Under the pieces are notes generated by a model. The model did no database searches and had not been told where the DNA came from. It saw nothing but the letters and a program-made list of their open reading frames with translations. Below are positions 10,312-33,324 of a stretch of DNA of 43,955 bases, piece after piece (within the stretch, counting starts at the first letter, position 1; every line of letters begins with the position of its first letter). The translations under genes were made by a program, and so were the position numbers. Source of the DNA: a virus; the UHGV virus genome UHGV-0152227; one strand, 5' to 3'.

Positions 10312-10323
10312 GTGACATGTCAC
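10312..10323. repeat. 12-bp perfect palindrome GTGACATGTCAC, copy 1 of 3
   Basis: Exact match to copies at 27684-27695 and 29949-29960; lies 1 nt downstream of the stop of gene 10325-10885. Confidence 0.9.
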
Positions 10324-24426: not shown

Positions 24427-24723
24427 TCACTCCTGTTCACTGGCCTCTTTGGCCATCTTCAAATACTGTTCAGGGCAATGCGCCATAACGCGCTGAAACA
24501 GTTCCAGCGCCAGATTGCGTTGCCCCTCATTAAATGCCATTGCCATAGCATCCATCGGAGAGATAGCGGAAAACACCCGGCCTTTCTCCAGCACCGACCA
24601 GACAACGCGACGCCCCTGTTCACTGCTCATGACAAAGCGAATGTCATCAATTTCACGCTGTGCCATGTCACGTTGCTTACGGGCGTTTTCTTCTTTCAGT
24701 TGATCGTCTTCGTAATCTGTCAT
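24427..24723 (-). CDS. Small head-module protein, 98 aa
   Basis: ATGA overlap with portal stop; acidic. Confidence 0.5.
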   Translation of the reverse strand: MTDYEDDQLKEENARKQRDMAQREIDDIRFVMSSEQGRRVVWSVLEKGRVFSAISPMDAMAMAFNEGQRNLALELFQRVMAHCPEQYLKMAKEASEQE

Positions 24724-26399
24724 TGTGATTGCCCACCCTGACCACTAACTGCATTCGCCATAGCTGACAAAACACTCGGATCCGAAGTTTTAGCTTCGCT
24801 TAGCGTCTTGGCACCCTGTGCCGCCGCCATCCCCATCGCCATCATTTGTTGCTGCTGTTGTTGCTGTGCCCGTTGCTGGCGAGCCTGCTCAACCTGTTCC
24901 TGCGGAACAATGACGGTTGGAGACACTCCGGACATATCAGCGAATGCATCGATCGCCTGATCAACGTTGAGTTTGTCGAGAGCTTCTGGTTTCGCTTGCG
25001 CAAGTTGACCAATAAAGTTGACCGTGGATGCCAGACTGGACAGGCCGATAGACTTCTGCGCCTGAGCCATGACGGAAATGTATTCGACCTTCAGGGGCAT
25101 ACCTTCCATCGCGTCAGGCGGTGGCGGCAGCATGTTTTTACGCACCATCATCGAGAAAGCGCGGTCAATGAGAGGATTAAGACATTCGTCGTTCAGACGC
25201 TCCAGAACCGGCCCCAACATCAGAAGTTTTTCTTCTTTCATTTCGATCACTGCTTCAACAGGCATCGAGCGGGTATTGATGTTCTGCAACATCATGAACA
25301 GATCGACAAAGTAGGCGCTGTTAATGATTTGACGAGTGTCCTGAATGTCTGCTACCAGATCTGCTGTACTGGGGTTAACCAGATAAGCAGGCCTGAAGCC
25401 ATCCTGACCAGTAATCTGATCGATATACGTGATGTCGCCAGGAAGAAGGGAGGCGCGCTGATTCTTGAGGGAAGTCGGAGCAACCATCGGCGGATTGGTG
25501 GCTTTATCAATCAACTGCGACTTGCGCTTCTGGAGAAGTTGCAATGCCTTAACAGGTCCAAGCGCCAGCATACCCGGGCATGATGATCCATAAACATCTT
25601 CGCCATTAACTTCCCAGCGCGGAGCCATAATTGGAAACTCATCAAATCCGGACTCACGCAACAACTTGTCGTTATCGCCACCAACCTCGTAATAAACCGA
25701 TTTGAATGGCTTGTTCTTGCTATCCAGCTTCGATGTATCGCGGTCAATGTTCGGGTAAACCGAATGCATCACTTCAATCCACTTCTCGTAGGTGCCGCTT
25801 TCCCACATGCTTTTTACGGATTCGCTGACGTTATTTAGTCCGAACTCCTGAACAAGCTGACGAACAGTCATAGAGAACCTGCGAAAACAGGTGTCTACAC
25901 TGCCACGAGGTGAGTTAGCCAGGTAGTAACTTCCTATCGGGAATGGCATTGTACGAATGATGTCCTCGTCATCCTCCAGCACCGCCATTGCGCCAGTGCT
26001 GTATGTGCCGAGGCTTCCGTATAACTGCGGCAGCGACTGATAGAGATTCGACTTATTGAACATATCGTTCATGCGGTTCTGCACCGCCTCAAGCCACAAC
26101 TTAACAGGGCCATAATCCATCATTTCAGGATCTGGCGTAGCCAGGCGAAACCACGGACGCGCGGGGCTTGTGATGCCTGACATCATGCCGCTGGCGAGAG
26201 TGCGCGCCGCCATAGTCCCGGTCGAATCAATAATGCGTGTATTGCGTCGATCGTTACGGTTGACCTCAGAAGTCAGAAAGCGGGAACCACGCGGGTTGAT
26301 GTAATCACTCAACTCGCGCCAGTGCGGCTCGAACGACTGACGCTCGCTTTCAAGTTGTGCGAACTGTTTGTTCAATCGCTCTTTAGTTGTTTCCGCCAT
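24720..26399 (-). CDS. Portal protein
   Basis: 559 aa between terminase and scaffold; GGAG RBS; C-terminal Gln/Ala-rich tail. Confidence 0.8.
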   Translation of the reverse strand: MAETTKERLNKQFAQLESERQSFEPHWRELSDYINPRGSRFLTSEVNRNDRRNTRIIDSTGTMAARTLASGMMSGITSPARPWFRLATPDPEMMDYGPVKLWLEAVQNRMNDMFNKSNLYQSLPQLYGSLGTYSTGAMAVLEDDEDIIRTMPFPIGSYYLANSPRGSVDTCFRRFSMTVRQLVQEFGLNNVSESVKSMWESGTYEKWIEVMHSVYPNIDRDTSKLDSKNKPFKSVYYEVGGDNDKLLRESGFDEFPIMAPRWEVNGEDVYGSSCPGMLALGPVKALQLLQKRKSQLIDKATNPPMVAPTSLKNQRASLLPGDITYIDQITGQDGFRPAYLVNPSTADLVADIQDTRQIINSAYFVDLFMMLQNINTRSMPVEAVIEMKEEKLLMLGPVLERLNDECLNPLIDRAFSMMVRKNMLPPPPDAMEGMPLKVEYISVMAQAQKSIGLSSLASTVNFIGQLAQAKPEALDKLNVDQAIDAFADMSGVSPTVIVPQEQVEQARQQRAQQQQQQQMMAMGMAAAQGAKTLSEAKTSDPSVLSAMANAVSGQGGQSQ

Positions 26400-26413: not shown

Positions 26414-26620
26414 TTACTGACCAAGCAGCGTTTTACCGCTGGTATTAGCGGTTGATGTGTCGCCCTGAGAACCGGTAAGCAGCGTAGAACTACGACCAGC
26501 AGCAGCGCGACGGCGACGAGTTTCTTCGTCGCGGGCATCAACAACGGCGGCATCCTGCTCCTGTGGTGCTGCCTGAACTTCTGGTGTTGCAGGCACTGAT
26601 GGTGAGCTACCCATGCACAT
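26414..26620 (-). CDS. Small acidic protein upstream of portal, 68 aa
   Basis: ATG 26620 with GGAG RBS; overlapping alternative-frame ORF 26401-26640 judged less likely. Confidence 0.5.
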   Translation of the reverse strand: MCMGSSPSVPATPEVQAAPQEQDAAVVDARDEETRRRRAAAGRSSTLLTGSQGDTSTANTSGKTLLGQ

Positions 26621-26688
26621 ATCAATGACTCCGTACGCAATTAAATTATTACCAATTTAACCACATATGATTTATTTATCGTAGATAG

Positions 26689-26725
26689 TTGACATTTAAC
26701 GCACAAATTATTACCTTTAGGGTAA
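26689..26725 (+). promoter_or_regulatory. Early-type promoter-operator (TTGACA ... ATTATTACCTTTAGGGTAA) facing the tRNA and moron
   Basis: Near-duplicate of the PL-like promoter architecture at 37395-37437; operator 26711-26725. Confidence 0.55.
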
Positions 26726-27047
26726 GTAAATGGTTCATTCCGGTTATTAACCTGACTGGCTTGTCGTTAAATTGAACAGGTGGAGTGAGCTTTTATTTTG
26801 AGCAGTACGGCGTATGGCACATGCGCCGATAGCGGTCTGGATACGTTTAAGGGGCTCCCTCCCTTGCTCGGGCAAACGAACCAGGTAGCCGGAATGTGCA
26901 AGTCGAGCGGTTTTATTCCGCGCACGGGGATTCACCATCCCGGCGATTCGGTGTGACGCCTCGGAAGAGACGAGGGTACAACGATGAGAGCATTTATGGA
27001 GCCGCGACAAAGTGTGGCGCCTTAACAGGCTAAGTGCTCTCAGCGTT

Positions 27048-27124
27048 GTGGCATTAGCTCAGTTGGACAGAGCAACCGCCTTCTAAGCGGTTGGTCGCAG
27101 GTTCGAATCCTGCATGCCACGCCA
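27048..27124 (+). tRNA. tRNA-Arg (anticodon UCU, reads AGA)
   Basis: 77 nt folded by hand: acceptor GTGGCAT/ATGCCAC, D-arm GCTC...GAGC, anticodon loop CTTCTAA, T-arm GCAGG-TTCGAAT-CCTGC, encoded CCA; differs from chromosomal argU. Confidence 0.9.
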
Positions 27125-27287
27125 GAATCACGCCTAAGGACCGTGATGCCAGAAGTTCCAGGGGCTTGGCGGTGATGGTTTCCCTTGAAGGACTATCACC
27201 GCCCTTTTTACAGCAGGACGCCATTGCGATGACTTCATGCTGTAAACCAGTACAGCCACGGAAGGCATAACTCATTGCTTCCAGTTC

Positions 27288-27311
27288 GCCCGGTTCGCCG
27301 GGCATTTTTTT
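27288..27311 (+). terminator. Rho-independent terminator after the tRNA
   Basis: GCCCGG-ttcg-CCGGGC followed by ATTTTTTT. Confidence 0.8.
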
Positions 27312-27322
27312 AAGGTGAGATT

Positions 27323-27679
27323 ATGAACGACCAGCAAATCGAAAAAGAAATCGTTGAGAAAGGCAAAACCGCTCCGCGAGTTACGCCTCAATATATCGAA
27401 AGCATCATTCTTGAAGAGCATTTCTTTACTGCTTATGACGGCATTCGTGCTGCCAATATGGGAGTTGGCGATTCATGGACAGCGCATAAATCTACAGACC
27501 TCCTGACTTTCTGCGTATTGGTACTGAAGAATGGCTTCACCGTCACCGGAGAGAGTGCCTGTGCAAGTCCGGAAAATTTTGATGCAGAAATTGGTCGGAA
27601 GATTGCCCGGCAGAATGCTGTAAACAAAATCTGGATGCTCGAAGGTTACTTGCTGAAGCAGAAGTTAAGCGAGCAATAA
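27323..27679 (+). CDS. Moron protein, 118 aa, possibly phage Gp49/Sf6 gene 66-like family (tentative)
   Basis: ATG 27323 with AAGGTGAG RBS; opposite strand to flanking terminase and portal; own terminator. Confidence 0.6.
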   Translation: MNDQQIEKEIVEKGKTAPRVTPQYIESIILEEHFFTAYDGIRAANMGVGDSWTAHKSTDLLTFCVLVLKNGFTVTGESACASPENFDAEIGRKIARQNAVNKIWMLEGYLLKQKLSEQ

Positions 27680-27683
27680 CACC

Positions 27684-27695
27684 GTGACATGTCAC
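27684..27695. repeat. 12-bp perfect palindrome GTGACATGTCAC, copy 2 of 3
   Basis: Exact; 5 nt after the stop of gene 27323-27679 and downstream of the large terminase. Confidence 0.9.
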
Positions 27696-27700
27696 AAACA

Positions 27701-27727
27701 GCCAGCCGATGAGCTGGCTTTGTTTTA
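27701..27727. terminator. Terminator hairpin, probably bidirectional
   Basis: GCCAGC-cgatga-GCTGGC followed by TTTGTTTTA; T-rich on the complement too. Confidence 0.65.
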
Positions 27728-27769
27728 TCCTCATCAGAGGATATCAACGACATTATCCCCACTAGCGGA

Positions 27770-29245
27770 TTAAGCATAGGGATCGTAATCTGTGATGGCC
27801 TTGCCTTGCTGGTTCTGCTGCCCGGGAATTCGCAGACGCTTTGACACAGGGAAAGCAAACGTCAGCAGTAGCGCATCGCCTTTACCAGGAGAACGCCCAA
27901 GCCGCTCCTTGATATCTTCCTTCGGTTCGATAACGATTTTACCGTCCACTCGAACTTTATACTCTGCCGCCGACAGGTCGTCCGCTGTTTCCTGGTCATC
28001 CAGCATCCCGCCCAGCCTCAGCCATGTCTTGCATGAGTTGAACATCTCCCCACGCTTGTTGAGCATCTGCGGGTCAGTAGACGCGCCACCGAACGGAACA
28101 AGTTGCCATGTGCGCCCCCAACCATCACCGATTGACTTCAGACCGGTACCGTAACCGAAGTCGATGAACACCGCGTCAGCCTGATACTGGTCTTCAAAGT
28201 CAGCGATACGCTTCGCCATAATCAGATCGTCGGTGGTCTTGTTACCAGTCCATAGCACCTTACTGTGCAGCCCCTGCCGCAGGTATATCACAGCGTCATC
28301 AACGCCGGAGTATGCCGGGTCAACGCCGATTATCACCGGAGCATGCGCCACCTGCGCAGCGGTTACCACCCGTTTCATTGCCTCATCAGTAAGACCGGTA
28401 GGGATAAACTGCAATTCAGATGCATCAGGGAATATGCCGCGCACACGGATTTTAACGAAGTCGCTATCTTCCCCGTAGTCATCAACCCATTTCTGCAACT
28501 GCTGTTTGTTAGTGCCTTCCACCGTCCGGCTGTCAATCTGCGCAGTTTTCCAGCGGTGTTTATATTTGCGGAAACATTCGCGGAAACGCCCGGTGTTACG
28601 AGTAGGGTTTCCGAACGCCACCCAGATAATCTCAGTGTCTTCGTCCGTAAGCGCACCCTCAGCAACTTCCCACACCAGATCCGCAATGTTCGACGCTTCA
28701 TCGAATACCACGATGATGCGTTTGCGCTCGTTGTGTAGTCCGGCGAATGCCTCAGTGTTGTGCTCAGACCAGGGGATTGCGTCAGCTCGCCACCGCTTGT
28801 CGTGCCCAGGATCATTGCTGTACATCGCGGTAGCGGTACAGGTAAACCAGTCTTTCGTGATAGCAAGGTTCGACCACTTGATAATTTCCGGCCAGGTCTT
28901 CGTTCGTAGCTGGTTGTCGGTGTTGGCGGTCACCACGACCTTACAATCCTCGCAAGTGGACATGCCCCAGTTGATCAGCATTGAGATGAATGCGGATTTA
29001 CCAATACCGTGACCAGAAGCGCGTGCCAGCATAAGCGGCTGATAGCGCGTCTCTGGATTCTGCAGGTGATCACGTATCTCTCGGAACGCATCAGCCTGCC
29101 ACTGACGTGGGCCGGTGGCATGTGCCAGTTCAGTCCCCTCTTCCCCCCACGGGAACGCATAGAGGGCATAGCCAAGCGGATCGTGAGTGAACCCTGCAAT
29201 ATCCTCGATCAACTGCTCTTCAGGAGATAACGCTGTATCTGTCAC
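27770..29245 (-). CDS. Terminase large subunit
   Basis: 491 aa; ATPase and nuclease-type organisation; GTG start overlapping small-terminase stop (GTGA). Confidence 0.85.
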   Translation of the reverse strand: MTDTALSPEEQLIEDIAGFTHDPLGYALYAFPWGEEGTELAHATGPRQWQADAFREIRDHLQNPETRYQPLMLARASGHGIGKSAFISMLINWGMSTCEDCKVVVTANTDNQLRTKTWPEIIKWSNLAITKDWFTCTATAMYSNDPGHDKRWRADAIPWSEHNTEAFAGLHNERKRIIVVFDEASNIADLVWEVAEGALTDEDTEIIWVAFGNPTRNTGRFRECFRKYKHRWKTAQIDSRTVEGTNKQQLQKWVDDYGEDSDFVKIRVRGIFPDASELQFIPTGLTDEAMKRVVTAAQVAHAPVIIGVDPAYSGVDDAVIYLRQGLHSKVLWTGNKTTDDLIMAKRIADFEDQYQADAVFIDFGYGTGLKSIGDGWGRTWQLVPFGGASTDPQMLNKRGEMFNSCKTWLRLGGMLDDQETADDLSAAEYKVRVDGKIVIEPKEDIKERLGRSPGKGDALLLTFAFPVSKRLRIPGQQNQQGKAITDYDPYA

Positions 29246-29948: not shown

Positions 29949-29960
29949 GTGACATGTCAC
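29949..29960. repeat. 12-bp perfect palindrome GTGACATGTCAC, copy 3 of 3
   Basis: Exact; overlaps the stop codon of gene 29957-30295, just upstream of the terminase operon. Confidence 0.9.
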
Positions 29961-30295
29961 ACTATTAATTTCGTTTCATGCCAGCCTTTAGTCACCCAGC
30001 ATTGCGAGTCACCATTACACGGGCATGAATTAACTGGAACTCTCTCGCCGCACTTACCGCAACGTTTTCTGCTGATCGATTTTATACGCCCGCGCACCCG
30101 GGCATCATCCTGGCGGATCAGCAGCGCGATGTACTCGGCCATTTCATAGGGATCTCGACCAGGGCGCCGGGCGGCGCAGTTCCGCTCCAGCATTTCAATT
30201 TCCTGAGCATCAAGCACAATCTCCAGCTTACGTACACCGGATTCAGCTTGTCTGGCTCTCTGAGCGGCTTTGCGCTCTGCTGCTGATTTAGCCAT
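29957..30295 (-). CDS. Hypothetical protein with C-terminal Cys cluster (CGKCGERVPVNSCPC)
   Basis: ATG at 30295; basic N-terminus; zinc-ribbon-like Cys spacing. Confidence 0.5.
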   Translation of the reverse strand: MAKSAAERKAAQRARQAESGVRKLEIVLDAQEIEMLERNCAARRPGRDPYEMAEYIALLIRQDDARVRGRIKSISRKRCGKCGERVPVNSCPCNGDSQCWVTKGWHETKLIV

Positions 30296-30330
30296 CAATA
30301 TTTACCTTTATCGCGAACACCTTTACCGGT

Positions 30331-30573
30331 TTATCTCCTTTGCATGGCACGTAATTTTTTCAGATGGTTCTCCTGTTCTGTTTCAGCCAGGATCTGGTGA
30401 TATTCTCTGTGATCAATGTGTTCGAATAAATTATTGAATTTTCTGATGCACACCCTTCCAGGATAGCCATCCATCCTCTTGAAGAATACTGAGTGATCAG
30501 TACTACGAATGATTTTTACTGGATAGCCGGCGCTATCGGTGTATATCTGACCACGTTGAATCAGAGAGAACAT
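30331..30573 (-). CDS. Small hypothetical protein, 80 aa
   Basis: ATG 30573; nin-region-like position. Confidence 0.45.
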   Translation of the reverse strand: MFSLIQRGQIYTDSAGYPVKIIRSTDHSVFFKRMDGYPGRVCIRKFNNLFEHIDHREYHQILAETEQENHLKKLRAMQRR

Positions 30574-30634
30574 TCGTTTATCCCCAGATAAAAATATAGC
30601 AATACCAATTACATAAAATACTTCAGGCCAAGCA

Positions 30635-31360
30635 TCATTTCACCTCCTGCGGCGGTTCTGGTAGAGGCATCCAATTGATTACATCGCATTTAGGGATGCT
30701 GATATCATCACCAAGCCACCCTTGACCTTCAGACCAGCATTGCACGTAATACCCGTATTCTGTGTTCACTACGCACCACTGCGCGTCGTTCGGCATTCGC
30801 TCACTACAGCTTATCCAACCATCCGGAGTTACCGGATAGTTGACAGCCAGTCTGCGCAAAACAGCCTTAACAGCCTCAATACGGTCATCATCAACTTTTT
30901 CTACAATATTGGAATTTAAATACTTCGAAGCCTTGCTATGCCAATCGCTGGTTTTAGGGTCTTGTCCATCCATCAAACGCCAAGCTTCAGCGATTAACTC
31001 ATAGCCAGTAACAGTGGCTTCCTGCGCATCACCAATCAGTTGTGTGATCTCTCTTTCAAGCATGCTTAGAGCGTTAGGCATTGGTTTTTCTTCCGGTACT
31101 ACTGGAACGGGTGGGGCGGCGTAGACCTCAATAATTCCATTATCAATAGGCCATTCTCCATCCTTGAGGTAGTCACTTGTGCCGTCAACTTGCTGTTCTG
31201 CAATGTGGAATGCACCTATTGGTTTTGCCTCAAGCGAGGCCAGTGCAATTCGTGCCAGTTCTTCCGCTTCTTCTGCTGGCAGTACAACGTTGCTACCAGG
31301 TCCGTATGTTTCGCGCCACTGCCTGATTGTCAGCAGTCGCTCTTTGGTAATAGTGGTCAT
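30635..31360 (-). CDS. DUF551-type protein
   Basis: C-terminal WISCSERMPNDAQW...W motif typical of DUF551 in lambdoid accessory regions. Confidence 0.6.
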   Translation of the reverse strand: MTTITKERLLTIRQWRETYGPGSNVVLPAEEAEELARIALASLEAKPIGAFHIAEQQVDGTSDYLKDGEWPIDNGIIEVYAAPPVPVVPEEKPMPNALSMLEREITQLIGDAQEATVTGYELIAEAWRLMDGQDPKTSDWHSKASKYLNSNIVEKVDDDRIEAVKAVLRRLAVNYPVTPDGWISCSERMPNDAQWCVVNTEYGYYVQCWSEGQGWLGDDISIPKCDVINWMPLPEPPQEVK

Positions 31361-31370
31361 GTGTTAGTCC

Positions 31371-31634
31371 TTATCCTGCTGTACTTTCAACTGATGAGGG
31401 GAATAAAATCTTTTCATCAAATCCGGCATTCATATCATGAACAGCAACACACCAATCCATTGACGAACGATTATCAAGAGCCTCCATGATTTCATCCATG
31501 CGGCGCAGGTCATACAGGTAAATGCTTTTATCGCCAATGGTGTAAAAACCAATTTTTTTCGGTGATGGGCAGCGATCAAGAACGTCCTGTAATTCGCTCA
31601 ACCATGCTTGTTCTTTTTTTGTCAAAGTTGCCAT
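31371..31634 (-). CDS. Hypothetical protein, ~87 aa
   Basis: ATG 31634 overlapping upstream stop; in-frame ORF extends to 31688 but overlaps the neighbour. Confidence 0.45.
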   Translation of the reverse strand: MATLTKKEQAWLSELQDVLDRCPSPKKIGFYTIGDKSIYLYDLRRMDEIMEALDNRSSMDWCVAVHDMNAGFDEKILFPSSVESTAG

Positions 31635-31635
31635 A

Positions 31636-32202
31636 TCACTCTCCTTTAATGCGAATGTCAGCGACGCGTAATGCGTGTTCCAGGTCAATCAGGTAAAGCC
31701 AACTGCCATTTTCTTTAGGTATCATGACATGTCGCTCATCTGCATTTATCGGGTGTCCATATCGAAGGTCGTAGCGAGTCGGTAATTGAACTTCCCGCGC
31801 TTCCAGTTCAGCAATGCGCTTCTCTGCGGCCTCTGCCCTGCATTGTTCCCGTTGGAACATTTTGTGGGTGCGGTCGAGCGCCTCAAGTCTGGCTGCTGAT
31901 GTTTTCTCTTCTGCTTCAAGCTCAACGCGCAGCTTCCCAACCGTAAGCGCAATATCCTCGTTCTCCTGGTCGCGGCGTTTGATGTATTGCTGGTTTCTTT
32001 CCCGTTCATCCAGTAGTGCCAGCACGGTTTCTGGTCCGGCCAGAAATTTGAAGGCGTTGAGCGCATCAATATCCACACCGTAATCTTTAAGTTCCTGTTC
32101 ACTTAACAAATCATCATCAACTGGCAACATTAACAGGCGTTCCATTGCTGGAATTGCACGTTCTGCCGCCTCACGCAGTGCCTGATAGTTAATTTTGGTC
32201 AT
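31636..32202 (-). CDS. Ead/Ea22-like protein, paralogue 3
   Basis: N-terminus MTKINYQALREAAERA nearly identical to paralogue 32500-33324; coiled-coil. Confidence 0.65.
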   Translation of the reverse strand: MTKINYQALREAAERAIPAMERLLMLPVDDDLLSEQELKDYGVDIDALNAFKFLAGPETVLALLDERERNQQYIKRRDQENEDIALTVGKLRVELEAEEKTSAARLEALDRTHKMFQREQCRAEAAEKRIAELEAREVQLPTRYDLRYGHPINADERHVMIPKENGSWLYLIDLEHALRVADIRIKGE

Positions 32203-32203
32203 A

Positions 32204-32503
32204 TCACATCACCCTGAAGCCGTTGCATTTACGTAAAAAATCGCAGATATAGCCCTTCATTTTTTCGTGCCAATCTCGATCATTCCCATTGCACCAACCA
32301 TCAGGTGGAGTCCAGTTTTCTATCAGAGCAGCCATTTTCTTTGCTTTCGCCGGAGTAGCTGTTGCGGTATCGCAGTAATGACGAGTGTCAACCAACGTAT
32401 CCATACCATCGATATCAAGTACGCAAAACCATGTGTGATTCGGCATTTCAACAGATGGTATTTGTTGCCCACGTCGACGTTTATCAATAAGACATACAGT
32501 CAC
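32204..32503 (-). CDS. Hypothetical protein, 99 aa
   Basis: GTG start overlapping upstream stop; Cys/Trp-containing. Confidence 0.45.
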   Translation of the reverse strand: MTVCLIDKRRRGQQIPSVEMPNHTWFCVLDIDGMDTLVDTRHYCDTATATPAKAKKMAALIENWTPPDGWCNGNDRDWHEKMKGYICDFLRKCNGFRVM

Positions 32504-33324
32504 TGGTTGCCTCCTTTGCGAAGCTGGGCAGCAAAGTCAACTAACCACTCAGTCATTTCAACCTTCCCTACCAGGTCTGAACCAGGGTGCATACAGCAAT
32601 CACTCTGCGCCGCTTTGAAATCCTTATACTCATATTCTTGGGCCACCAGATTTTTTGCAGCTTCTATAGCAGCATCCACCCCCTGCGCCCGAACTTCAGC
32701 CAGGAAAGCGTCGGTGGCTGGGGTTTCGACATTAGGTCGAAGCTCATAATCACAAACTCTTTCAATCCATGGTGATACTCTGTCGCATTTCCTCTTCTTG
32801 CGTTCACCGACCTTGGTTGCCTGCTGAATAATTACCCCCCAGCAAATGCTTTCGACCTCTTCGCTCCATCCATCGCAAGCATCGCCTCTATAGTCGTCAA
32901 TTGCAGCCTCAGCAGCAGCGATAGCCTCCTCAGCAGTTTTGTGACACTCGAAACTAAATTCAGAGCCATATGAGAAATACATAGCCCCGGCCTTCAGCGC
33001 CGCATTCTCCGCTGCCAGCGCCACGAGATTAGTCTCAAGCTCTGCAATTCGACACATAGCATCAATATTTGTGTCCTCCAGGCGCTTAATTTCACCAAGC
33101 AGCTCCAGTGCAACCTTTGGGTTGAACGCGGCAACATAACGAGCGTTGTTCTCTGCATTTTTCTGTCCATCAAAGCCGGTCCATTTGATAACGTCTTCAC
33201 ATCGTTCATCACCGGGCGTGTGCACCGCATAAGTACCAGTATCCGTCGAAATAAATGCGACCCATTCGTCTGGTGTTGCCTTTTCTGCCGCCTCACGCAG
33301 TACCTGATAATTAATCTTGCTCAC
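32500..33324 (-). CDS. Ead/Ea22-like protein, paralogue 2
   Basis: Shares N-terminal block with 31636-32202 and C-terminal block (AAENAALKA ... AAQLRKGGNQ) with 33321-33890. Confidence 0.65.
   Translation of the reverse strand: MSKINYQVLREAAEKATPDEWVAFISTDTGTYAVHTPGDERCEDVIKWTGFDGQKNAENNARYVAAFNPKVALELLGEIKRLEDTNIDAMCRIAELETNLVALAAENAALKAGAMYFSYGSEFSFECHKTAEEAIAAAEAAIDDYRGDACDGWSEEVESICWGVIIQQATKVGERKKRKCDRVSPWIERVCDYELRPNVETPATDAFLAEVRAQGVDAAIEAAKNLVAQEYEYKDFKAAQSDCCMHPGSDLVGKVEMTEWLVDFAAQLRKGGNQ

Follow-up and report, generated by a model that had tools for sequence, protein, structure and literature searches.

A conserved pseudoknotted leader RNA behind an operator-bearing early promoter in phiV10/epsilon15-like and other phages

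UHGV virus genome UHGV-0152227 was analysed here as one stretch of 43,955 nt (the window; all coordinates are those of the whole stretch). Between its terminase and portal genes lies a plus-strand island with an early-type promoter, a tRNA-Arg(UCU) gene and an open reading frame (ORF) of 118 aa, and the question this locus raises is what occupies the roughly 320 nt that separate the promoter from the tRNA. An initial annotation listed a promoter-operator, the tRNA, terminators, the 118-aa ORF and a palindrome, all of which are present at or close to where it placed them, but it overlooked the largest feature, a conserved RNA at 26805-27047, and treated 26726-27047 as spacer. We find instead that this conserved structured RNA is the constant part of the unit.

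A structured RNA between promoter and tRNA

The interval contains a structured RNA of about 245 nt (26805-27047, plus strand), hereafter the leader RNA, which folds into six helices and one pseudoknot. Its elements are as follows.

26726-26804, plus strand: variable 5' leader segment with the motif GUCGUUAAAU ... GGUGGAGUGAGCU; its length differs between relatives
26805-26980, plus strand: leader RNA core
26808-26828, plus strand: helix P1, CGGCRUAUG-GCA-CAUGYGYCG
26833-26840 with 26881-26884 and 26888-26891, plus strand: helices P2a/P2b, with an invariant GUA bulge at 26885-26887
26884-26902, plus strand: 19-mer search probe GGUAGCCGGAAUGUGCAAG, in the core
26927-26930 with 26938-26941, plus strand: helix P4
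26933-26936 with 26950-26953, plus strand: pseudoknot, P4 loop CACC with downstream GGUG
26959-26963 with 26971-26975, plus strand: helix P5, CCUCG-GAAGAGA-CGAGG
26979-27048, plus strand: helix P6, in which CAACGAUGAGAGCA (26979-26992) pairs with UGCUCUCAGCGUUG (27035-27048) and encloses a variable insert

Five helices and the pseudoknot were defined on an alignment of 40 sequences, in which 97.2% of the cells assigned to pairs do pair; column shuffles gave 88.1%, and sliding of the partners 30-42%. Compensatory changes occur in 11 of 30 pairs, and two-sided changes number 97 cells against 29 in the shuffles, the observed value being reached by none of 500 shuffles. P1 covaries cleanly from G:C to A:U, five sequences have AACC:GGUU in the pseudoknot in place of CACC:GGUG, and G:U pairs, frequent in the plus orientation, are confined to it. 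P6 has its closing stem in 36 of 38 distinct sequences, with covariation between the two strands (as in GGAAAAGGCG/CGCCGUUUCC and GAUGGCU/AGUCAUC). A hairpin at 26929-26956 (UCAC-C-AUCGUG...UACGGU-GUGA), proposed by single-sequence folds, was dropped; it is unconserved, and covariation favours P4 with the pseudoknot.

These patterns also bear on whether 26747-27033 codes for a small protein. Open frames of 45-87 aa are present on both strands, mEp460_037 and a coding sequence of a Stenotrophomonas phage are annotated over the match, and some records place a minus-strand hypothetical protein there. Substitutions are nevertheless paired across helices and not at third codon positions, the variable loops carry insertions and deletions of any length, the frames differ among relatives, and most records, like the PGAP annotation, place nothing in the interval; we reject this reading as scarcely credible.

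Searched against Rfam 15 at the gathering threshold, the window gave no match in the leader region to any riboswitch, ribozyme or small RNA (sRNA) family, and 26726-27047 matched no family at E values up to 10. An RyhB-like match at 27257-27311 (E 2.4) and a plastid-family match antisense to the tRNA were set aside as chance. Searches of the literature by sequence string and by topic found no description of the leader RNA. As judged from alignment and model, it is a large pseudoknotted RNA with strong covariation that is absent from Rfam 15.

The last base of P6, G27048, is also G1 of the tRNA. The word GUUGUGG at the 3' side of P6 (window 27035-27054) is retained in lambdoid copies that lack a tRNA, and therefore the tRNA acceptor stem starts within a conserved leader motif. 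In the Uetakeviruses, the 5' segment carries (U)GUCGUUAAAU followed by GG(U/C)GGAGUG(A/C)GCU (window 26760-26795), upstream of the core; the same motif lies within the P6 insert, 3' of the core, in a Stenotrophomonas phage copy (L010) and in L077, which suggests a movable sub-module or a permutation.

The RNA recurs in lambdoid, P1-like and epsilon15-like phages

BLAST with 26726-27047 alone retrieved 103 phage records at 72-82% identity, in which the matching sequence is hardly ever annotated. Beyond the Uetakeviruses, the matches include the lambdoid phages cdtI, mEp460, Ayreon and 2H10 together with Stx2c, Stx2a and Stx2k phages, as well as P7, D6 and other P1-like phages, and phages of Klebsiella, Salmonella, Enterobacter and Stenotrophomonas. 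The 19-mer GGTAGCCGGAATGTGCAAG (26884-26902) is found in all nine diverse aligned copies, an invariance that is partly built in since the 19-mer served as search probe; at least 120 IMG/VR contigs carry it, as do 24 species-representative genomes, of which nearly all belong to Enterobacterales. About a third of complete Escherichia coli genomes (1840 of 5426) carry the element, at 2474 places of which 554 are on plasmids. The annotation under the match is 'none' for almost every one of the E. coli matches listed, and PGAP leaves nearly all sampled copies blank.

With covariance model R1 the window yields a single copy (150.9 bits, E 3e-44), and related loci have one each, with one exception. 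This locus, L027, has copies at 3995-4155 and 4802-4960, both on the minus strand and flanking a reverse-oriented 166-aa ORF, and its second copy is altered at otherwise invariant bases (GUA to GAA, and GCCG to GCUG with GGUC to GGCC). A tRNA directly abuts the leader RNA, on either side, in 46 of 130 loci.

This distribution contradicts the simplest account of the island, a plain tRNA moron with 320 nt of passive leader or spacer ahead of the tRNA. The tRNA itself is genuine and fits the AGA-rich early genes described below, and phage-borne tRNA-Arg(UCU) genes are common. However, the leader is 72-82% identical in phages lacking a tRNA at that place, the covariation is significant, and Tyrion and PAT1 have retained the leader RNA with the tRNA absent, which leaves a passive spacer very improbable.

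An early-type promoter under an operator

The leader RNA follows a promoter that was read from the sequence and an operator that overlaps it.

26689-26717, plus strand: early-type promoter, -35 TTGACA at 26689-26694, 17-nt spacer, -10 TACCTT at 26712-26717
26711-26725, no strand: operator TTACCTTTAGGGTAA (TTACC-N5-GGTAA), overlapping the -10 element and the predicted start

Transcription is predicted to start near 26724. A generic promoter scan of the window did not call this promoter, because its -10 element fits at only 3 of 6 positions. The arrangement TTGACA-N17-TACC(T/C)T is nonetheless kept in 35/35 distinct Uetakevirus loci while the spacer sequence differs; in the same 35 loci the operator begins 22 nt after the start of the -35 element, and it precedes the 19-mer by 100-296 nt.

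TTACC-N5-GGTAA occurs at 14 sites in the window, against 0.71 expected (7812, 8192, 9259, 10509, 26711, 29838, 29856, 34300, 34362, 36264, 36601, 36649, 37361 and 37423), and is spread over at least 10 intergenic sites. Operator pairs stand on either side of a predicted repressor gene (36719-37303), whose product has two helix-turn-helix domains. In ZX5, overexpression showed ORF21, reported to be sequence-identical to the phiV10 repressor, to be the lysogeny repressor (PMC9782041). The island promoter and the promoter at 37396-37437, downstream of the repressor gene, have AATTATTACC in common, so that the initial annotation was correct in calling the former a near-copy of the PL-like promoter-operator. 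Its proposal of repressor-type control also held up, as the island promoter bears the immunity-region operator, with the same geometry throughout the genus; binding of the repressor at this site is what we infer from these sequences. Of the 14 operator sites, two fall at the 5' end of the small-terminase gene, where the late operon starts.

Position of the RNA in different phages

In the Uetakeviruses, the RNA follows the island operator-promoter in 35/35 distinct loci and precedes a varying cargo: the tRNA and gp49 (the 118-aa ORF) in the window, a tRNA and a DUF2829 protein in a Klebsiella phage, and a tRNA and a 64-aa ORF in SPN1S. Plus-strand terminators follow the RNA in 24/24 Uetakevirus loci and stand ahead of the next ORF in 19 of them.

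In lambdoid phages, the RNA lies downstream of a cI-type repressor gene and OL/PL, with repressors from three unrelated families. In mEp460 (L003), cI is followed by a terminator, then by two TTGC-N7-GCAA operators together with a PL-like promoter, and about 40 nt further on by the RNA. In Ayreon, a terminator and a promoter annotated by the depositors stand directly before the RNA, and another terminator lies within the downstream operon. We compared the 150 nt 5' of the RNA with the cI-cro region of the same phage in 56 lambdoid loci: the longest shared word averages 9.1 (6.8 and 7.6 in controls), and shared words of 10 or more are found in 17/56 loci against 2 and 1 in controls. The RNA is not a 3' untranslated region of cI, since a terminator and a promoter separate the two in mEp460 and Ayreon; a reverse-oriented gene intervening in several loci further counters that reading. 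Among the commonest gene families just downstream of the RNA in lambdoid loci, none is N-like.

In mEp460, about 300 nt of non-coding sequence separate the RNA from the first early-left ORF (L003 2250-2550). They contain long inverted repeats, such as ACAAAACAGAGAAGA ... UCUUCUCUGUUUUGU, and a long-loop hairpin followed by UCUUUUU, and could form another structured region or a terminator of unconventional type.

In P7/D6-like phages, 15 nt separate tRNA-Ile(CAU) from the start of the RNA, and about 100 nt separate its end from ban. The P1-type ban operon is reported to be controlled by the phage repressor C1; a search of 2 kb around the P7 copy revealed no C1-type operator.

No second, putR-like copy on the PR side was found among the examined loci, the two copies of L027 being on the same strand. 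By a strict pattern, a boxA-like word occurs in 1/146 regions. In L089 (about 3360-3400), a hairpin and then UGCUCUUUAACAAU, a match to the boxA of the E. coli rrn operons, stand directly 3' of the core, 129 nt after the 19-mer, and L033 and L046 bear AGCUCUUUAA.

The constant rule, documented for the lambdoid and Uetakevirus settings, is that the RNA lies inside a repressor-controlled transcription unit, upstream of diverse cargo. Terminators or long untranslated stretches often separate the RNA from this cargo, and no gene for a phage protein partner travels with it.

The island as a transcription unit with exchangeable cargo

The window is evidently a phiV10/epsilon15-like prophage of the genus Uetakevirus (a podovirus), and about 1.4 kb around the island is 97-98% identical to phiV10, O157 typing phages 9 and 10, TL-2011b and ZX5. 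The neighbouring genes and the parts of the island beyond the leader RNA are as follows.

24720-26399, minus strand: portal or head-tail connector gene, neighbour beyond the 68-aa ORF
26414-26620, minus strand: conserved 68-aa ORF, PHROG 831
27048-27124, plus strand: tRNA-Arg, anticodon UCU, CCA encoded (ARAGORN; Rfam 73.3 bits)
27168-27209 (hairpin 27168-27203), plus strand: terminator T1, 14-bp stem, -22.8 kcal/mol, then CUUUUU
27288-27311 (hairpin 27288-27303), plus strand: terminator T2, GCCCGG-UUCG-CCGGGC, -12.7 kcal/mol, then AUUUUUUU
27323-27679, plus strand: 118-aa ORF of the Gp49/Sf6-gp66 family, PF13876; PHROG 322
27684-27695, no strand: palindrome GTGACATGTCAC, one of three exact copies in the window
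27700-27726 (hairpin 27700-27719), plus strand: terminator T3, AGCCAGC-CGAUGA-GCUGGCU, 3' tail UUUGUUUU / UUGUUUUAU
27770-29245, minus strand: large terminase gene, neighbour of the island

A comparison of relatives does not bear out a sporadic insertion. The order of terminase, island and a small ORF adjoining portal is constant across the genus, and only the cargo varies; relatives exchange or lose the tRNA and the ORF, and retain the promoter, the operator and the RNA. As a self-contained unit of early transcription, the island is fixed in phiV10/epsilon15-like phages; the leader RNA is its constant component, with tRNA and ORF as interchangeable cargo. Like a moron, the island has its own promoter and terminator, runs opposite to the flanking genes and differs in cargo between relatives, but the operator over the -10 element argues against moron-type expression from a repressed prophage.

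The terminators of the initial annotation are real, and so is the 118-aa protein on the strand opposite to its neighbours. It matches PF13876 (Phage_gp49_66) over profile positions 1-82 of 82 (E 1.7e-34, 118.6 bits, cut-off 27); neither PF13876 nor PHROG 322 carries a functional assignment. The ribosome-binding site of gp49 (AAGGUGAG, 27312-27319) abuts T2; because the U tract of T2 contacts this site and leaves no room for a promoter before the start codon, the ORF can be reached by read-through only.

On the minus strand, the T1 hairpin is followed by AAGCCCCU and the T2 hairpin by GAACUGGA, neither of which is a U tract, and the minus-strand version of T3 is weak (GUUUGUG). As predicted from these tails, T1 and T2 are terminators of the plus strand only and T3 is weakly two-directional. 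Leftward late transcription is therefore not compelled to reinitiate, contrary to the earlier suggestion that the downstream portal and head genes must either do so or pass terminators. The same annotation described a bidirectional-looking terminator carrying a second copy of the palindrome; the palindrome is indeed present at 27684-27695, whereas T3 works in both directions only weakly.

ARAGORN finds a single tRNA in the window, with anticodon tct at position 35, and the gene passes the covariance-model check for the proposed tRNA-Arg(UCU) with 73.3 bits against RF00005 (gathering score 29, E 2.7e-14). The arginine identity elements of tRNA are A20 and C35. Read from the sequence, the window tRNA carries both, together with a 3' CCA: its D loop is AGUUGGACA with A at position 20, its anticodon loop CUUCUAA, and the gene ends in GCCA. 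About 500 E. coli records contain it at 95% identity or more; outside prophage copies, the best chromosomal match (85.9% identity over bases 7-77, annotated tRNA-Arg) is presumably argU. The tRNA is already annotated as tRNA-Arg in related phages, and in close relatives it is the same gene. Stx-phage argN/argO and the tRNA-Arg of O157 typing phages 9/10, SPN9TCW and SPC32H have the same anticodon and the same presumed role at rare AGA codons; compared with other phage tRNA-Arg(UCU) genes, that of the window is fused to the 3' helix of a structured leader and stands under an operator-controlled promoter.

The tRNA had been proposed to support lytic translation, with a count of AGA codons in late genes as the check. 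No enrichment was found there: AGA amounts to 2.1 per 1000 codons in late structural genes and is absent from head, portal and terminase genes, against 12.1 in early minus-strand genes (29950-36600) and 11.1 in the left arm. The proposal should thus be narrowed: since AGA is enriched in early, not late, genes, the tRNA fits the former and the accessory genes, consistent with the early-type promoter.

What the leader RNA may do

We propose, tentatively and at somewhat less than even chances, that the leader RNA is a cis-acting antitermination or anti-Rho leader that makes early transcription resistant to terminators. A position like that of HK022 putL, terminators before the cargo and the lack of a protein partner favour such a leader, and a cargo as diverse as this one (tRNA, gp49, DUF2829 protein, ban, ParB-like, YfdQ-like) speaks for a device of general use in transcription and against a regulator of one particular gene. 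In the lysogen, repressor would hold the island unit off. Upon infection or induction, the nascent leader RNA would fold and work in cis with RNA polymerase or a conserved host elongation/termination factor, so that the transcribing polymerase would become termination-resistant, as with HK022 put RNA. In the window, the polymerase could then pass T1 and T2 and reach gp49, while a cut by RNase P at G27048 would free the tRNA to decode AGA in AGA-rich early and accessory genes.

The put RNAs offer the closest precedent by position. HK022 putL/putR and the HK639 putL-like RNA likewise lie just after a repressor-controlled early promoter, in lambdoid phages without a recognised N-like gene, and HK022 putL, at the same position, needs no phage protein and acts on polymerase through the beta-prime zinc-binding domain (PMC9378689). 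Put-like RNA has also been suggested for N-less lambdoid phages (PMC12315714). Neither put nor the leader RNA has an evident dedicated phage protein partner; the HK639 annotation gives one put copy, on the PL side only, and the leader RNA is likewise single. There is a local likeness, ACGGCG ... CAUGCGUCG, with the same G:U wobble as put G12-U32. Beyond this the two RNAs differ. Put, with its two stems, measures about 70 nt (126 nt for the HK639 feature), whereas the leader RNA has 170-245 nt, six helices and a pseudoknot and does not conserve the A9-G35 platform; unlike put, it is also present in podoviruses and P1-like phages, adjoining tRNAs. It thus shares the position of put but neither its two-stem architecture of about 70 nt nor its sequence, and we rejected membership of the put family, as only a short motif is common to both and searches with R1 and with putL by BLAST were both negative.

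The lambda N/nut system has the same early-left leader position and the same logic of a signal ahead of terminators. The leader RNA is not a lambda-type nut site with boxA, boxB and an N gene, however: no N-like ORF was recognised, a boxA-like sequence is present in 1/146 regions, and the RNA is far larger than a nut site.

Several results weigh against antitermination. R1 has no match in six put-region loci, including HK022, HK639, phiEt88, CobraSix and S9-5, and BLAST with putL misses the leader RNA and retrieves a different set of phages, so the analogy with put rests on position and not on homology. A canonical plus-strand intrinsic terminator lies within 800 nt downstream in just 7/55 lambdoid loci (by a strict rule, Rho-dependent sites not being predictable), which makes the terminator support from lambdoid copies weak. 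The P7-like RNA is internal to its operon, after tRNAs and small ORFs, and the PR side has no second copy. In addition, a polymerase that also ignored T3 would transcribe antisense into the terminase gene.

Some of the same features could instead point to a stable immediate-early non-coding RNA acting in trans, for example as decoy or sponge of a conserved host protein or in counter-defence, which we regard as rather unlikely. Such an RNA would be excised from the early transcript. In the window RNase P would make the cut at its 3' end, in P7-like phages the processing of tRNA 3' ends would set its 5' end, and lambdoid leaders would be cleaved by RNase E. It would account for the long near-invariant single-stranded stretches (the 19-mer being partly so through search design), for the abutment of a tRNA on either side in the 46 loci given above, for the end of P6 exactly at G1 of the tRNA, and for transcription of the RNA first upon derepression in the lambdoid and Uetakevirus settings. 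Phage T4 offers a precedent, with two stable RNAs of unknown role, species 1 and 2, that are co-transcribed with its tRNA cluster and presumably released by tRNA-processing enzymes. These likewise combine a non-coding RNA and phage tRNA in one transcript, but in a virulent phage and with no known link to a repressor-controlled promoter. Most copies of the leader RNA, moreover, lack a terminator of their own and continue into mRNA or tRNA; short forms with a terminator-like hairpin precede a whole early-left operon that still needs transcription; and no partner protein gene co-travels.

A ligand- or signal-sensing aptamer, that is, a riboswitch or attenuator gating early transcription by host state with the variable 3' parts as expression platforms, seems improbable. 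In its favour are the compact pseudoknotted fold with many invariant unpaired bases, the varying 3' modules (P6 with inserts, alternative modules, terminator-like hairpins), and a mutually exclusive pairing of GGCACAU (P1) with AUGUGC proposed by RNAalifold. That pairing uses invariant bases only, whereas P1 covaries; P6 is a plain stable hairpin with neither a U tract nor overlap with the core; the downstream genes are mutually unrelated; and no riboswitch class of Rfam 15 matches.

P1 provides a further comparison for the setting. Its C1 regulon comprises many dispersed operators, one of which controls the ban operon; dispersed operators are shared with the window, the repressors being unrelated, and the P7-like leader RNA lies inside ban, a member operon of that regulon.

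Returning to antitermination, the wider claim would be that the leader RNA is an undescribed RNA class of lambdoid, P1-like and epsilon15-like phages that binds RNA polymerase or an elongation/termination factor, confers processive antitermination without a phage protein, and is the missing early device of N-less lambdoid prophages; we consider this possible but doubtful. If the RNA is an antiterminator, it would explain early-left operon expression in many lambdoid phages without an N gene and would add a second, structurally distinct case in which RNA alone controls polymerase processivity. Should it prove to act in trans or to be a sensor, it would bring a new immediate-early participant into the induction of common prophages, some of them toxin-bearing: the carriers include Stx2a, Stx2c and Stx2k phages and P1-like plasmid prophages. 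The novelty of the island is the unannotated leader RNA family; the tRNA and the gp49 ORF, already annotated in relatives, add little.

Other elements in the window

The palindrome GTGACATGTCAC has exact copies at 10312-10323, 27684-27695 and 29949-29960, where 0.08 are expected in the window, and a near-copy at 24660-24671. These places are the end of the last late gene, just past the terminase and gp49 stops, and the early/late boundary, and the palindrome might bind a late regulator or serve as a boundary element.

A second, imperfect palindrome lies between T1 and T2.

27207-27246, no strand: imperfect 40-nt palindrome, self-match at 80% identity

It is followed by a stem-loop and U run (27257-27311, the place of the RyhB-like score, which is not significant), and 27207-27311 could be a small RNA or attenuator module, although the evidence is not significant.

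At 8192, an exact operator TTACCTTTGCGGTAA stands before an isrK-like RNA (8243-8319) and a C4 antisense RNA (8344-8427) in tandem; in this podovirus, 8192-8427 thus resembles the immI module of the P1/P7 type, which controls an antirepressor. Finally, close to the integrase end of the prophage, 41771-41860 matches sRNA-Xcc1 of Rfam with 64 bits, which exceeds the gathering score.

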